Positions 4,267-61,940 of a stretch of 64,000 bases of DNA are shown one piece after another. Source of the stretch: Eledone cirrhosa (Eukaryota); assembly GCA_964016885.1 (NCBI GenBank), contig OZ024752.1, positions 13,640,001 to 13,704,000 of the forward strand, written 5' to 3'. The notes beneath the pieces are model-generated. The model did not search any database. It had not been told where the DNA came from and saw nothing but the letters and a program-made list of their open reading frames with translations. The translations under genes and the position numbers were made by a program. Each line of letters begins with the position of its first letter. Position 1 is the first letter of the stretch.

Positions 4267-4300
4267 CTTAATGTTTTGGACGTTAGTCCTTCATCAGACG
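4267..4300 (-). ncRNA. degenerate minimal hammerhead motif (family H1)
   Basis: Reverse complement CTGATGA-aggac-taac-gtcc-AAAA, where GAAA is mutated. Same family as 31889, 43917 and 50546. Confidence 0.5.
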
Positions 4301-12433: not shown

Positions 12434-14062
<1,629 letters not shown>

Positions 14063-14064
14063 AG

Positions 14065-14463
14065 AATAAACGTGCTGCAGAGGTGCAAATGGGTTACCTA
14101 TGAATAAAGTGGTCCTTCATCAGTGATCTTCCAACCATCATCGGTATTTCTTCGCTTTAAAGACCATATACCTCCGGTTGGTGCGAGCAACGGCTAAAGA
14201 AAGTCGTTGGGACATGTAAATAAAGGGAACAGCGAGAGTGTAAACAAACAAAGATGGTGAAGCAACGAAAAGTGAGGAAGAGCGAGTCAAGTCCAAACAT
14301 TTCCATGAATATAAGTTCGGTGAAATCGTGAACGAGAGAGAATAAAGACCATCAAACCTGGTTGAAATGTGAGCAAGGAAGGAATTTCGCACAGGTCTAA
14401 CGGGAGGAAGAAGGGGTCTAGTCTGTGAATTCGGTAGACGAGAGAGAGAAAAATGCCGACCGG
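14065..14463 (-). mobile_element. (TA)n-flanked non-coding element (family P) carrying permuted hammerhead-like motif at 14117-14181
   Basis: Reverse-complement homolog of 36870-37270. See findings. Confidence 0.7.
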
Positions 14464-17396: not shown

Positions 17397-17905
17397 AAAA
17401 AAAAAAATATAAGACAAAGCAAAGCGTGGATGCATCTAAGCGCAAGCAGTGCAAAATGAGGTGTACAGGCAGATCAAGAGAGTTTGCAAGCATGAGTCTG
17501 TGAAAAGAATTGTTGGTTAACAGTAATGCAGCCTTATATGTATGACAGTTCATATGAGTGATGGTGTACTCCAAGTATAACTCCATATATATATATATAT
17601 GGAGTTCCGTAAGTACTATCGATAACTCACTATATCGATATATCATGATTATTCAGGCTTCTGAAACGATCGTAAAACAATGAACTAAATCAGACCTTCT
17701 CTTTTCATTGTTCAACACACACACACACACACCCACACATATATATATGTATATACGTAAGTTCTGGATTCAATCGGGGGTAACCACAGCTAGTAAGGTA
17801 CTCAATACCTGAGTAGAGTGTAAACAACATGTTTATTATAGAAATGGTTTCTACAGGACTAGAACTGTTTCACTCAAAAGAAATACGCAGTAAAGAAGTC
17901 ATCAG

Positions 17906-17954
17906 GGCTTTCCTGATGATTTCTTTTGAATGAAACAGTTCTAGTCCCGTAGAA

Positions 17955-17957
<3 letters not shown>
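17906..17957 (+). ncRNA. type I hammerhead-like motif (family H2)
   Basis: ggctttc-CTGATGA-tttcttttgaat-GAAA-cagttcta-GTC-ccgta-gaagcc. The outer stem covaries with the copy at 41851 (gattc/gaatc), and an inverted partial copy lies immediately upstream. Confidence 0.6.
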
Positions 17958-17998
<41 letters not shown>

Positions 17999-29886: not shown

Positions 29887-29951
29887 AAGAAATCATTATT
29901 ATATATATATATAATATTGTTTCACCTTAGCGGATCCTCAGCCCGCCATTA

Positions 29952-29989
29952 CGAGCCGAGGATCCGCTAAGGTGAAACAATTGTTCTCG
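29952..29989 (+). ncRNA. minimal hammerhead-like motif within short palindrome
   Basis: cgag-CCGAGGA-tccgctaaggt-GAAA-caattg-TT-ctcg. The opposite arm reads CTGAGGA on the minus strand, and a degenerate homolog lies at ~7963-7999. Confidence 0.5.
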
Positions 29990-30033
29990 GTATGGTGAAC
30001 TAACTGTTGTGTAACCACTCCCCCCCCTCTCTC

Positions 30034-36624: not shown

Positions 36625-36869
36625 AACGAGTAGGAGTCCAGAATTAGCCGTCGAAACGGCTTGAGCTCAGCCGTCGGGGTCCTACTCGTTCCTATTACCC
36701 ACTCTACTACCCTAAGTATTGAGTACTTTGGTGCGTTATGGTCCATCTGGTTCCTTACCACATTTCCTTCGTTGAGGAATCTAGAAGCAGTTTAGGTATG
36801 ATACATCTTATTACTAATTATATCTAAATGTTTCTTCTCTCTTCATAATGTACTATATATATATATCTC

Positions 36870-37270
36870 TCTCTCTCGTCTGCGACTTCACAGAACTTAT
36901 GTTTACCGAATTCGCAGACCAGACCCCTTCTTCCTCCCGTTAGACCTGTGCGAAATTCCTTCCTTGCTCACATTTCAACCAGGTTTGATGGTCTTTATTC
37001 TCTCGTTCACGATTCAAACCGATTTTATATTCATAGAAATCTGGGACTTGTTTCCTTCTTCCTCACTTTCTGCTGCTTAAACCATTTTGTTTGTTTACCC
37101 TAGTGTCCCCTTTATTTACGTGTCCCAACGACTTTTTTTTTTAGCCGTTGCTCGCACCAACCTGAGGTATATGGCCTTTAATGCGACGAAATGCCTACGA
37201 CGGTTGGAAGGCCACTGATGAGGACAAACTTTTTCATATGTAACCCATTTGCAGCGCCGCAGCTCCATTA
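36870..37270 (+). mobile_element. family P element with permuted hammerhead-like motif at 37157-37221
   Basis: Homolog of 14065-14463 and microsatellite-flanked. Confidence 0.7.
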
Positions 37271-37275
37271 TTATC

Positions 37276-37309
<34 letters not shown>

Positions 37310-38765: not shown

Positions 38766-39691
<926 letters not shown>

Positions 39692-39829: not shown

Positions 39830-40067
39830 TTATAAATGAAATAACAGGAGGCTGGACTGGTGTAAATCCTTGAAAGGTTTATTATACTATGATCATTTCA
39901 ATGACCGGGTTCCATATCAATCCGATGATATCATCAGGTATTGGAATAGGTATTCCAATACCTGATGATATCACCAGATTCATATGGAACCCGGTCATTG
40001 AAATGATCATAGTATAATAAACCTTTCAAGGATTTACACCAGTCCAGCCTCCTGTTATTTCATTTAT
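39830..40067. repeat. near-perfect ~240-bp palindrome
   Basis: tataaatgaaataacaggaggctggactgg... pairs with ...ccagtccagcctcctgttatttcatttata, centred at ~39951. Confidence 0.9.
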
Positions 40068-40247: not shown

Positions 40248-41383
40248 TAAGGGTTGACGGACCCAGCATATTTATCAATGCCAGGACCGGTTGTATCTCA
40301 GCGCACTCAATGGGCAATGTAAGATACATTACCAGAGTATACACATAGTTATTTGCCTCAACACAACACACGTAAATCGGGTGCCTATAAGGTTTCCGGA
40401 CTCGAGTTTCTGCCGCACTAATGCAGCAGTAAGGTGCACTGCACCATCTGTCTGCATATATTATGCAACAATGCACAATCGGCTTATGTTGCTTCATCAG
40501 CGGCTATCGCCTAATCAATAACCAATCGATCGACATAATCCAAACACCGGCCCGAGCCGGTCATGACTGTTTGTGACAACCGACACGGTGAAGCGATTAA
40601 CTGGCAACCGATAGGACTCAATCTCACAACTAGCCACTGATTTATAAATTTTACGTGGGGACGGGAAGCTAAAAAGAATCAATATTTTCGTTCCTGTCAG
40701 AAGCCCTCAGCCAACGTGTCTCACACACAAATTATCAAGGGGTGAAAAGATGGCTATTAGAAATAGCAGTTCACATTGATATAAAATAGAATGGTAACAT
40801 TCGGTTCATGTCTCCAAGCCCCATGGCTAGAGGAGAGCGATGGTAACAATGGTAGTGCCAAGAACCTTTAACGGACATTAAATGCGATCATCCATTATAT
40901 ACCAATATAGTAGCGAGCTGAAATGAGTCAGCCACGTGCGTAGATAACCAGTCTAATTCACAACTTAAAAGAGTGAGAACCAAAATTAGTAGCAGGAAAA
41001 AGAGTCGCTATCAAAACAAAAACACAATAAAAAGTGAAAAATTGTTTAACTTACTCTCAATATTCTGCTCGTTGGGAGATAATAATAATAAGGGTTGACG
41101 GACCCAGCATATTTATCAATGCCAGGACCGGTTGTATCTCAGTGCACTTAATGGGCAATGTAAGATACATTACCAGAGTATACACAAAGTTATTTGTCTC
41201 AACACAACACACGTAAATCGGGTGCCTATAAGGTTCCCGGACACGAGTTTCTGCAGCAGTAAGGTGCACTGCACCATCTGTCTGCATATATTATGCAACA
41301 ATGCACAATCGGCTTATGCTGCTTCATCAGCGGGTATCGCCTATTCAAAAACCAATCGATCGACATAATCCAAACACCGGCCC
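40248..41383 (-). mobile_element. retrozyme/PLE-like unit: two ~300-bp direct repeats each with a hammerhead
   Basis: Repeats 40248-40553 and 41089-41383. Reverse complement cccg-CTGATGA-a-gcagca...tgctgc-a-GAAA-ctcgtg-TC-cggg (41236-41334), with a homolog at 40396-40503. Confidence 0.75.
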
Positions 41384-41850
41384 ATATAAATATATATGTG
41401 TGTGTGTGTGTGTATGTGAATGTGTCTGTTGATATCTGGAATATAGCTTAAGAGAAATATGACAATAATGATATGATAGGCACCCAATATTTTGAACTGG
41501 TTTATAGAATTCTCTTGGCCTTTGTGACTCTAAGTAGAGCTTTAAAAATTAGCTTTTAAAGAATTTCCCTTTTCTTTAAATCCATCAACCATGACCGAGC
41601 CCCAACCATATTATAGACACCTGAAATATAAGCATTGTTGGCTAAAGAGAAACTTAAAAAACCCCACTCTGAATTTGTTTATAGAATTCTTTCTGCCTTT
41701 GTCACTCTAAATATAAATTATAGCCGTAAAGATTTAGCTTTTAATGAATTCCCTTTTCTTTCAACCAATGACCTTCACCCATCCCGCTCCCCACCCTCTC
41801 CTACCACCTGAAAATATATAAATACCGCAACATTTATTTTTGGAAAGCCA

Positions 41851-58153: not shown

Positions 58154-58159
58154 TTTTTT

Positions 58160-58463
58160 TCTCTCTCTGCTCATAGCCCTCGCTCGTGTAGGATCTATTC
58201 TCTAAGCGCTCATATATTCACCTAGCTTATGCTAAACAGAATAATTTTTGAAGCTTGTTTCTGTCCCCTACGGTTAGCTATACTCTTTGTTGTTCTCCTG
58301 TCTCACTCGCTTTACGCGTTTTAATTGTCCTAATAACTTATTTTGGCTATTATTGCACCGACGTGAGATATATGATTTTTAATGCAATGAAATATCTATG
58401 ATCTTCGGCAAATCACTGATGAGGGACTTATTTTATTACATGTTATCCATGTGCTACCTGCAG

Positions 58464-58470
<7 letters not shown>
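58160..58470 (+). mobile_element. family P element with permuted hammerhead-like motif at 58358-58422
   Basis: Homologous to 39250-39545 (tgtctcactcgctttacgcgttt shared) and microsatellite-flanked. Confidence 0.7.
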
Positions 58471-58538
<68 letters not shown>

Positions 58539-59761: not shown

Positions 59762-60114
59762 ATTAATCTATTTGGATAGAACGAGAATTATATATGAAGA
59801 TTGTAAACAAAGGAACGTAATACATACAGAATATCTGATCATTTATATTAGCTAAGTGATTTGAAAGCCAGAAGGTATTTCAAATCGCAAATTCAGAAAA
59901 TTCTAGTTATACAAAAACGATTCTAAAACCAAACTAAGGATATTGAGTCAATCATGAGATTAATTTACTATATAAAAAAAACGATATACAATTTTTTAAG
60001 GTAAGGCAAAACATTATATATATAATAATAATTTCAAGAATTATTAATAATAGTCAATATTTTTTTCCCTTCTTAGTCAGTGTTTTTTTCTGAATATATA
60101 TGATGCTTCAAATG

Positions 60115-61940
60115 TCTTTCCAGATTTATGGAGACAAGCTGCACATAATTCATTCTTCTTATCAATTAAATTATCATAACTAGTAATTATTAATAGAGTT
60201 TGTAAATTGCACAAAGATTGCAGTTTGGTGAGATGGAAGCGTTCTGTTAGGATTCAGAGTTACTAAGCTTACTCCAAGAAATTGAGTATTTAATATTTTT
60301 CTCTTTCAAAGACCATATTATTTATGATAATGAAGTAGAAATTTCTTTTATCTGGATTAGAGAAAGAATGTTTATGATTGGAAAAGCGAAACTTAAAGTT
60401 CGATGAAGTGGCACCTATATAGTTATAAGTATTATTATTATTTGTCTTAATGATACATTTTTATATACTAAATTCTTATCAAGGCAATTATTTTGTAAAG
60501 GGCATTCAGATTTCCTTCTACAGTTACAGTTCAATTCCATGCTATTTCTATAACCTAAACTGTTCGTATTATCATTGTTATTATTTCTAGGTATTCTACT
60601 ATTATTCGTATTTAAACTATTGTTATTGTTATTCACATTAACTACTGTATTATTATTATTATTATTATTATTGTTATTATCACTAATTATATGTTGGTTC
60701 GATTTAAGAATGTTGCTATTAATTTTTGCAACATTTTGAGCAATATTCATAGTTGTTGAGTACGAAAGTTTAACTGTATCTATTGAAGATAGAGTAATAC
60801 TTATGTGATCTAGGGAAACATTTATCTAAGGATTTAAAAAATAAATGTGCTAAATAAATGTGCTAAATAAATGTGCTAAATAAATGTTTTAATAGCTAAA
60901 GATGCTGGTGGGGCATACCAAATTATAGATCTAGTCATAATTTTTTTCCCCGATTTATTCTCCAAGTTGTTATTTTTACAGTCAGCTTTATTTTTATTAT
61001 TATTATTATTATGAATATTGTGTTTATAATTACTATTATTTTTTCTACATATTCAATATTATTTTTATATCCTGCTTTATGTAACGCTTCATTATAATAT
61101 CCAGCTTTACTATTAAAAATGGATCTGTTAGCAGATAGTCTGGTTATTCGTTGTTGGACACTATTGATTATTGCGTTTTTAACACTTTTAGGATGATTAG
61201 AGTAAAAACTAACATAATTTAGGTTTTCATTGGGTTTATGGAAGGGATAATATAGGCCTGAGTTTAAATTAAGGATTACGTCTAAAAACTTAACTATTTT
61301 ATTGCTATTTTCTACCTCTAATTTCAGGTCGTAATTTTTAAAGAATTCTATAATTACTTTTTTTTACTCTATTTAATTCGCTATTATTATGTCTAACTAC
61401 AGTAAATAATATGTTATCTCTATATAAACCACCGGTAATCTCCGGTAGTTTTCTATTTATCATATTAAGGATGAAAATTCCCACAAGATCGGTAACTTGC
61501 GCAGGATCGAACGAGCCCATAGTAATGGCGAAATTCTTCTGCCTATCCGAACGAGTCCAAAAATCATTATTAAAGTCAATCAAGGTTTGCCTTGCCGTTA
61601 AAATAATATTAATCTCATTACTAGATAGATCAGTGTGTTTATATGCATATGAAAGCGCTTTATTCAAAAGGTTAGGAGTTATTGAGGAGTGTGTCCATTT
61701 GAATGAATTTATGATTTTTCTTATTTTCGATGTTATTGAACCAATCGAATACTTCACTAGTGCCCTTCCATAAGTTTAGCCTTGACCTGAAGTTTAACGT
61801 TGGCAAAAGCCTATTTATTATGTTTTTACTAATTATTTCAAGGTCTGACTTCGAAGCTGCGATAAGTCTAACAGGTATGTCCGCTTCGAAATTTCCTTTA
61901 TGGTCTTTAAAATTTATCTGCGGTTGCCTTGGTATGATAG
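60115..61940 (-). mobile_element. degenerate Penelope-like element ORF (RT + GIY-YIG; Neptune-like)
   Basis: [14 protein letters not shown]...SKSDL, ITMGSFD.AQVTDLVG...GLYRDN (YRDD-type), CNCRRKSECPLQNNCLDKNLVYK and YIGATSSNFKFRFSNHKHSF. Multiple frameshifts, and 5'-truncated at a microsatellite. Confidence 0.9.

Follow-up and report, generated by a model that had tools for sequence, protein, structure and literature searches.

The whole stretch of DNA analysed (64,000 nucleotides of Eledone cirrhosa, referred to as the window) contains five copies of a repeat termed family P, namely copy A at 14 kb on the minus strand and copies B, C, D and E at 37, 38.9, 39.4 and 58 kb on the plus strand. 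No sixth copy was detected in the window by blastn, nhmmer or a covariance model. The elements and the RNA motifs that they carry are located as follows.

14061 to 14460, minus strand: repeat element of copy A; the RNA sense is the minus strand, with (TA)n on both sides
14112 to 14213, minus strand: motif of copy A
about 36864 to 37279, plus strand: element of copy B
37122 to 37225, plus strand: motif of copy B; kink-turn (K-turn) helix 37157 to 37207, core intact, 3b·3n C·U
38860 to 38961, plus strand: motif of copy C; K-turn helix 38892 to 38942, A9 replaced by G
39391 to 39492, plus strand: motif of copy D, 531 nt after C; K-turn helix 39423 to 39473, A9 replaced by G
about 58159 to 58474, plus strand: element of copy E
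58327 to 58427, plus strand: motif of copy E; K-turn helix 58358 to 58408, core intact, 3b·3n U·U, 4b:4n C:G

Copy C is the 5'-truncated first unit of a partial tandem with D (period 531 nt), the one tandem pair among the five copies. The 3' ends of the copies lie 97-115 nt past a predicted cut site, and the variable 5' ends 140-671 nt before it, at microsatellites. At the gathering score, Rfam gave no match to the motif. Searches with family P patterns yielded no match in prokaryote genomes, six in metagenomes (none with the S block or the stems when inspected by eye) and one in viral contigs, the stems of which were absent on inspection; a repeat scan of the latter gave none. A short conserved, TTCACCNA.CTTAT-like block was also observed in copy A (about 14305-14320, minus strand), approximately 140-150 nt upstream of the cut site, with aligned counterparts in B, the C-D unit and E; in some reads it is doubled about 129 nt apart. 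This block resembles an snRNA promoter element and may be a promoter or a protein site.

On the minus strand, positions 14131-14181 span exactly from one end to the other of copy A's non-canonical (NC) helix. Read from 14181 to 14131, an NC strand is followed by 3n, GA, a stem III strand, a 19-nt insert (H17 to GAA), the other stem III strand, a 3-nt bulge, GA, 3b and the second NC strand.

14176 to 14181, minus strand: NC helix, non-bulged strand; two of the six pairs changed on both sides
14173 to 14175, minus strand: 3n (14175), G2n and A1n; 3n is variable in reads
14137 to 14142, minus strand: bulge L1-L3 (14140-14142), G1b and A2b (14138-14139) and 3b (14137)
14131 to 14136, minus strand: NC helix, bulged strand; no linker before stem I'

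A canonical stem, a 3-nt bulge, tandem GA/GA and an NC helix were found in all five copies, confirming the K-turn pattern that the first-pass annotation had described. Both GA dinucleotides, the bulge length and the 5-nt spacing of the canonical (C) stem, the conservation of which it had proposed to check, are kept in 5/5 copies, and the bulges have the letters it listed: GAU (A), UAC (B), AAU (C and D) and UAU (E). The 58-kb copy (E) likewise carries CCGACG/CUUCGG as reported. In place of the GGUUGG ascribed to the family, the NC strand of C and D ends in GGUUCG, giving one mismatch. The C helix is identical to stem III, with five of five pairs formed in A, B and E and four of five in C and D, where a C·C mismatch occurs; the NC helix has 6/6 pairs in A and B and 5/6 in C, D and E. 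The 3b·3n position is U·G in A, C·U in B and U·U in C, D and E, and -1b:-1n is C:G throughout the window copies.

A descriptor that asked for the S-G-C hammerhead blocks alone, with no K-turn requirement, matched the window five times, and both GA dinucleotides were present in all five matches. The same descriptor found 43 matches in 500 dinucleotide shuffles of the microsatellite-free window, none of which contained both. As the copies are homologous, this result indicates a real motif and is not proof of selection on GA. When alignment columns were compared across A, B, C and E, the GA positions were invariant in 4/4 columns, the core in 11/12, the bulge in 1/3 and 3b/3n in 0/2, while 35 of the 68 other paired and 12 of the 37 unpaired columns were invariant. 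Hand arithmetic assigns the GA invariance a probability of about 0.01 relative to unpaired and about 0.07 relative to other paired columns, which, with four near-independent copies, is modest and at most suggestive of selection. The nested fold of 14131-14181 (stem III plus NC helix) gave z values of -2.9 on the minus and -3.0 on the plus strand; thus, folding energy does not choose the strand.

The motif that hosts the K-turn has the block order S-G-C in all five copies and is a type-SGC, i.e. non-circularly permuted, hammerhead with predicted ribozyme activity. A descriptor for the C-S-G order gave no match in the window. In copy A, the parts of the motif are arranged as follows.

14210 to 14213, minus strand: P1 5' strand GUCC, pairing with 14112-14115
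14188 to 14209, minus strand: P2 hairpin of 7 bp with an 8-nt loop, an arm of the four-way junction; three of the seven pairs changed on both sides
14182 to 14186, minus strand: P3 splint strand UCGCA, pairing with 14152-14156; no linker into the NC helix
14167 to 14172, minus strand: block S, i.e. the stem III strand with U16.1 (also the C helix of the K-turn) and H17
between 14167 and 14166, minus strand: predicted cleavage site (AUA), by analogy to hammerheads
14160 to 14166, minus strand: stem I 5' strand; three of the seven pairs changed on both sides
14157 to 14159, minus strand: UAA, the 3 nt that link stem I with block G; no change among A, B, C and E
14143 to 14156, minus strand: block G, with the P3 3' strand (14152-14156), 11.1 (14151), GAAA (14147-14150) and stem III (14143-14147)
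14112 to 14130, minus strand: block C, with stem I' (14124-14130), CUGAUGA (14117-14123), 10.1 (14116) and the P1 3' strand (14112-14115)

The core is intact in A, B and E and carries A9 to G in C and D; the predicted cut falls after AUA or AUC among the copies. An ordinary stem II was considered and rejected, as only one pair forms: 10.1-11.1 alone can pair, and does so in four copies (G-C in B, G·U in C-E), with an A·A mismatch in A. In place of stem II, an upstream splint strand pairs with both block flanks and builds a four-way junction (P1, P2, P3), in which P1 joins GUCC to the bases after 10.1 and P3 joins UCGCA to the bases before 11.1 (with C-G changed to U-A in copy E). The end of the NC helix is connected by 0 nt both to P3 and to stem I'. 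The interaction helix that flanks block C in type-SGC ribozymes is absent from family P, which has P1, P2, P3 and the NC helix instead. Lacking both this helix and an ordinary stem II, family P is a variant that would work like type-SGC and is not a member of HRIMA-1. No active hammerhead whose stem II measures 0-1 bp at the core was found described in the parts of the literature considered here. The A9 to G change in C and D and the A·A at 10.1-11.1 in A count against the ribozyme reading.

A 35-pair model, which was drawn from these same sequences, had 90.3% of its cells paired in the five-copy alignment, and 10 of the 35 pairs changed on both sides (three in P2, one in P3, two in the NC helix, one in stem III and three in stem I). 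None of 500 shuffles reached this value, a statistic that ignores the relatedness of the copies, and controls with slid registers were 25-48% paired. In copy B, a 1-nt deletion after CUGAUGA puts P1 out of register (helix 1 is 75% paired); in its own register P1 forms 4/4 pairs, but its G is shared with 10.1. In copy E, the P1/P2 register is tied with a different one, and the aligned register was used for covariation. Nested folding of the whole motif was not significant (z -0.95 to +0.14), with B and E adopting other folds. In A, the 5' strand of stem I could instead pair with the nucleotides that follow CUGAUGA; this alternative fails in C-E and was discarded, whereas stem I covaries.

Variation within the element was followed by mapping four of 15 sequencing runs on 14062-14460 at 80% likeness. 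X1, X4 and X6 contributed 2213, 52 and 15 contigs, respectively, and X13 contributed 4096 raw DNA reads. Read depth peaked over the motif and over 14314-14411, the latter being a stretch common to A and B. The differences evaluated are the 40 best supported of 122; they are unphased and favour relatives of copy A. Position 11.1 changed from A to U (in RNA letters) in 87% of X1 depth and in 777/1197 X13 reads, so that an A10.1-U11.1 pair forms in that subfamily, as compared with G-C in B and G·U in C-E. Within the K-turn, L1 changed from G to A in 75%, and 3b from U to A in 36% (X1) and 534/1159 or 46% (X13). Position 3n changed from G to U in 10% (X1) and 236/959 (X13) and from G to A in 6% and 416/959, respectively; G was retained at about 84% of the X1 depth and in about 32% of the reads of X13. 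Five changes in P2 occurred at matching frequency (435-444 of 606-625 X13 reads), with pairing kept or repaired. Among the same best 40 of 122 read differences, no change affected the GA positions, CUGAUGA, GAAA, P1 or the NC helix. Compensatory changes between subfamilies point to selection during amplification.

As judged from their architecture and insertion pattern, the copies probably derive from the 3' terminus of a Penelope-like retroelement (PLE) of the Naiad type. Naiads insert at (TA)n targets, are 5' truncated and form partial tandems (Craig et al. 2021, PMC8557442), and the copies show a (TA)n target, a fixed 3' end, 5' truncation and a partial tandem. A Naiad reading frame (N-terminal GIY-YIG, C-terminal RT) adjoins none of the copies; hence, the link to Naiads rests on architecture and insertion pattern, and the copies would represent a non-autonomous derivative or a truncated end rather than a full Naiad. 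A broken Penelope-like reading frame was observed at 60100-61940 on the minus strand, with a PLE remnant at 60.4-61.8 kb in which RT is presumably followed by a GIY-YIG-like region. A link of copy E to this remnant was rejected, since the latter lies on the opposite strand and has RT before GIY-YIG. In the sections of PMC8557442 considered here, no canonical hammerhead ribozyme (HHR) is reported for Naiads; eight of them are listed with an 'HHR_half_core' in the 3' UTR, the second core half being 35-50 nt away, and these half cores are given there without a fold. The same source describes cephalopod Naiads as long inactivated.

The 3' ends of 27 of the 54 Naiad consensi in PMC8557442 were parsed by eye, with names taken from the file order. 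The two octopus consensi, Naiad_Obim and Naiad_Ovul, showed P1-P2-P3, the NC helix, U·U, GA/GA and a 3-nt bulge (AAU and AGU, respectively), followed by a stem III in which all 5 bp form, by stem I and, close to the 3' end, by CUGAUGA. In both, the 8-nt P2 loop matches that of C and D, and stems I, III, NC and P3 are written in other letters. That the K-turn is kept in these consensi although the stems were rewritten is the strongest evidence of selection on it, and we regard it as very probable that the K-turn pattern is real and under selection. Four other Naiads, belonging to other phyla, have by eye a splinted S-G-C hammerhead that lacks this K-turn: Naiad_Plae with a plain 3-nt bulge on the same strand, Movir-2 with a 5-nt bulge on the other strand, Bfor with a branch and a stem I of just ~2 bp, and Naiad-4_Dst with an almost straight stem III of ~15 bp and one bulged base. 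A bend or branch at the K-turn site was counted in 4/5 other splinted S-G-C forms, and the straight helix of Naiad-4_Dst indicates that a kink is not universal to this architecture. Ptep has the S-G-C order with a different periphery; the nematode Naiads Parc, Nbra-2, Nbra-3, Hcon and Hpol are of type CSG with an interaction helix; and Smim is a classical type I hammerhead with a long loop. In the stretch viewed, the remaining 14 of the 27 had no parseable hammerhead. Thus, a non-circular order was found in at least 12 of 27 Naiad 3' ends and a K-turn in 2 of 27. The splinted forms differ in detail: positions 10.1 and 11.1 pair with each other in family P, and both pair with the splint in Ovul, Plae and Dst-4; links are 0 nt in family P versus 1-2 nt in the straighter forms. 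Regardless of the bend, Obim/Ovul, Plae, Movir-2, Dst-4 and family P all have an extended stem III of 13-15 bp.

Family P was compared with the related systems. With type-SGC/HRIMA-1 (Eckert et al. 2023, PMC10085705), it shares the S-G-C order, the core, stems I and III, the pseudoknotted core and the short linker from stem I to block G, which is typically 3 nt in type-SGC. HRIMA-1 is metatranscriptomic, has a normal stem II and carries an interaction helix flanking block C, whereas family P is a high-copy animal genomic repeat with a 1-bp stem II and a splint four-way junction, and its stem III runs through the K-turn into a further helix, to which stem I' and P3 are attached without a linker. 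The terms 'kink' and 'k-turn' do not occur in the text or supplement of PMC10085705. With Naiads (PMC8557442), the copies have in common the (TA)n targets, 5' truncation and partial tandems and, by eye, the Obim/Ovul architecture with its K-turn; they differ in that the window copies are without a reading frame and have different stem letters. A C helix, a 3-nt bulge, G·A/A·G pairs, an NC helix and C:G at -1b:-1n are shared with Kt-7 and box C/D K-turns (PMC4382518, PMC5689011, PMC8191799). The location in a terminal repeat of a PLE or its non-autonomous derivative is shared with the minimal type I hammerheads of PLEs and with non-LTR retrozymes (PMC4209133; bioRxiv 10.64898/2026.07.22.740005); these have the C-G-S order, a weak stem III and proposed dimers, in contrast to the S-G-C order, strong stem III and minimal stem II of family P. 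The tandem type I units of non-LTR retrozymes have no counterpart in family P, with its S-G-C order and single tandem pair. The 2026 retrozyme preprint (bioRxiv 10.64898/2026.07.22.740005) searched only for type I hammerheads, as far as its portion considered here describes. Within the CC-licensed PMC/bioRxiv literature, Eckert 2023 was the sole source for a type-SGC hammerhead, and no description was found of an SGC hammerhead in an animal genome, of a splinted stem II or of a natural hammerhead with a K-turn in one arm. In the same literature, the combination of kink-turn and hammerhead stem III returned a synthetic switch and no natural case among the matches listed, and kink-turn with self-cleaving hammerhead and retrotransposon returned nothing. 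Both building blocks, the type-SGC hammerhead and the K-turn, were already known; within that literature, their combination in an animal repeat is new.

We consider it reasonably probable that family P encodes an S-G-C hammerhead in which the K-turn folds the extension of stem III back, so that the core could close within one RNA, which would cut itself ~100-115 nt before the 3' end of the element. In hammerheads, helix III stacks on helix II, and helix I runs parallel to II (PMC4209133). Stem III of family P would stack under stem II and point away from stems I and P3. Given links of zero length and opposed stem directions, a U-turn would be needed, and a K-turn with its published angle of 50 degrees (PMC5689011), placed 5 bp below the core, would supply it. 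Type-SGC ribozymes cleave, and their authors flag the same distance problem (PMC10085705). In a crude model that uses axes only and assumed offsets, the gap between the end of the extended stem III and the end of stem I was 10-21 Å with a folded 50-degree kink, 38-51 Å with an unfolded K-turn or a plain bulge, and 56-65 Å with a straight helix. As 10-21 Å is about the span of a junction, closure in one molecule appears plausible. The suggestion of the first-pass annotation that the kink turns the strand back to stem I' gains support by inference from this modelled difference (10-21 Å versus 38-65 Å), and on balance we favour a monomer-closing role of the K-turn. Cleavage would process read-through or tandem transcripts, by analogy to hammerheads in the pLTRs of other PLEs. 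After the cut, P1, P3, NC and III (20 bp) would hold the pieces paired, so that religation is possible. For one PLE, cleavage was not needed for insertion in vitro (PMC11167929).

Whether the K-turn would fold by itself depends on its letters. The third bulge position, L3, at which U enters the 15.5K pocket, is U in four of the five copies and, by eye, in Obim and Ovul. U·U at 3b·3n is found in C, D and E and, again by eye, in both octopus consensi; 4b:4n is G:C in A-D, C:G in E and A:U in Obim/Ovul (the latter by eye). The label 'box C/D-type' given at first pass fits only in part: U·U is present in three and G:C at 4b:4n in four of the five copies, C:G at -1b:-1n, the ion-folding type, in all five, and 3b and 3n are variable in reads. 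According to published rules, K-turns with 3n = G or 3b = C can fold in Mg2+, which C:G at -1b:-1n favours (PMC4382518, PMC5689011, PMC8191799); U·U is intermediate, and U·U with G:C at 4b:4n very impaired in ion-only folding (PMC5689011); and U:A at -1b:-1n makes a weak folder (PMC8191799). Such K-turns fold upon binding of L7Ae (PMC4382518, PMC5689011), and tertiary contacts alone can drive K-turn folding (PMC4382518). By these rules, Mg2+ alone should suffice for the folding of A (U·G) and B (C·U), and E (U·U, C:G) should be intermediate; C and D (U·U, G:C) are predicted to be box C/D-like, with impaired folding when L7Ae/15.5K is absent, and the octopus consensi (U:A at -1b:-1n, U·U, A:U at 4b:4n) to be weak folders impaired in the same way. 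Subfamilies with U·U would require the tertiary cage or 15.5K/Snu13, and those with 3n = G or 3b = C would require Mg2+ alone. As read from the letters, the element is a standard K-turn, some variants of which are box C/D-like; it is neither a snoRNA nor a conserved box C/D motif. Dependence on a host protein, which the first-pass annotation had raised, is a tentative option that is possibly credible for some subfamilies only.

Other readings of the same pattern were weighed against monomer closure. One of them is a domain-swapped dimer, for example of two pLTRs within a tandem transcript, in which each S-G loop would receive the splint and block C from the partner unit and the K-turn would only tune the geometry. 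Splinted S-G-C Naiads without a K-turn exist, and since forms such as Naiad-4_Dst and Naiad_Plae leave 39-65 Å in the axis model, where they are unable to close as monomers, they must work another way; these straighter forms likely act as dimers, and family P might also do so. The common 13-15 bp of the extended stem III read by eye, the tandem arrangement of C and D, and the proposal that PLE hammerheads act as dimers (PMC4209133) point in the same direction. Against it, three of the five copies are solitary, Naiad_Ovul is annotated 'no pLTR' (PMC8557442), the links of family P are shorter than those of the straighter forms, and the folded K-turn renders monomer closure feasible in the axis model, so that dimerization appears unlikely as the main mode in family P. 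It is also quite unlikely that the K-turn serves mainly as a 15.5K/Snu13 site that gates the ribozyme, with cleavage or RNP stability dependent on the host snoRNP protein. L3 = U with U·U in C, D, E, Obim and Ovul, the very impaired class of C and D (PMC5689011), the U:A at -1b:-1n of the octopus consensi (PMC8191799) and the rescue of such K-turns by L7Ae (PMC4382518, PMC5689011) would be expected of such a site. However, -1b:-1n is C:G in every window copy, A and B belong to ion-folding classes, the reads differ widely at 3b and 3n, conservation is lacking at 4b:4n (G:C, C:G or A:U), and tertiary contacts can suffice for folding (PMC4382518).

Decay of the copies is evident in places, namely A9 to G in C and D, the 11.1 mismatch in A and the deleted base after CUGAUGA in B, and it agrees with the published view of cephalopod Naiads as long inactivated (PMC8557442). 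The copies would then be relics that inherited the pattern from an ancestral Naiad and in which the K-turn is now idle. We regard this as improbable in view of the compensatory changes between subfamilies, which reflect selection during amplification, and of the 2213 X1 contigs and 4096 X13 reads on the stretch with their depth peak over the motif; moreover, it concerns the present copies and not the original selection on the motif. That the motif is akin to a box C/D snoRNA (D' CUGA, C' AUGAUG, guide, CUGA) and resembles a hammerhead by coincidence is scarcely credible. A box C-like AUGAUG occurs in A, C and D and a box D CUGA in B, C and D, and when 36.8-39.7 kb was scanned against Rfam by E-value, almost all of the 77 rows fell on microsatellites, and there were two weak matches to snR66 in C and D (22.2 bits versus a gathering score of 65, E about 3). 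Yet no family matched at gathering, there is no upstream box C, and the snoRNA layout of 5' box C, guide and 3' box D is absent, the order being D-like and then C-like. An exact RUGAUGA was found on the bulged strand of none of the five copies, the would-be guide covaries with stem I, and GAAA, U16.1 and the UH site are conserved in the hammerhead register.

Monomer closure by the K-turn would provide a concrete answer to the geometric puzzle raised for type SGC (PMC10085705), and the K-turn, 3-nt bulge, 5-nt bulge, branch and straight helix of the splinted forms make up a natural test series. If true, non-circular Naiad hammerheads would overturn the notion that Naiads proliferate without hammerheads and would explain the 'half cores'. 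A further, speculative extension, which we hold to be doubtful, is that the cage of octopus-type Naiads closes only when host 15.5K/Snu13 folds the stem III K-turn and that the 'missing' Naiad hammerheads are non-circularly permuted across phyla. If this were the case, nature would have a self-cleaving ribozyme that is switched by a protein, and the processing of retrotransposon RNA would be coupled to a factor of snoRNP assembly. With its K-turn arm and its stem II of only 0-1 bp, this kind of hammerhead would also offer a ready scaffold for L7Ae-controlled RNA switches.

Further hammerhead-like sequences were observed in the window by eye. Minimal type I hammerhead-like repeats, some of them degenerate, are located at 4297, 25893, 31920 and 50577 on the minus strand; they have CUGAUGA, a short stem II, GAAA and a palindromic stem III and are typical of canonical PLEs. 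At 40300-41500 (minus strand), a tandem pair of ~830 nt carries a type I hammerhead-like motif with cores at 40500 and 41330; a long insert lies inside stem II, and the arrangement resembles a PLE pLTR or a retrozyme. Long palindromes or inverted repeats whose arms carry CTGANGA occur at 17850-17960, 39880-40010 and 29900-29990 and are MITE-like. Among the Naiad 3' ends in PMC8557442, those of bivalves carry a conserved motif at the position where other Naiads have permuted hammerheads. The Naiad_Esco 3' end has, by eye, a hammerhead core in the order S-C-G with a possible K-turn-like closure past stem III. A consensus that is probably Naiad_Lpol (the name is uncertain, and it lies outside the 27) has the S-G-C order with long linkers, a stem III of 11 bp and a stem II that is short and direct. 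The bivalve motif resembles a twister ribozyme, which suggests that ribozyme classes may be interchangeable.
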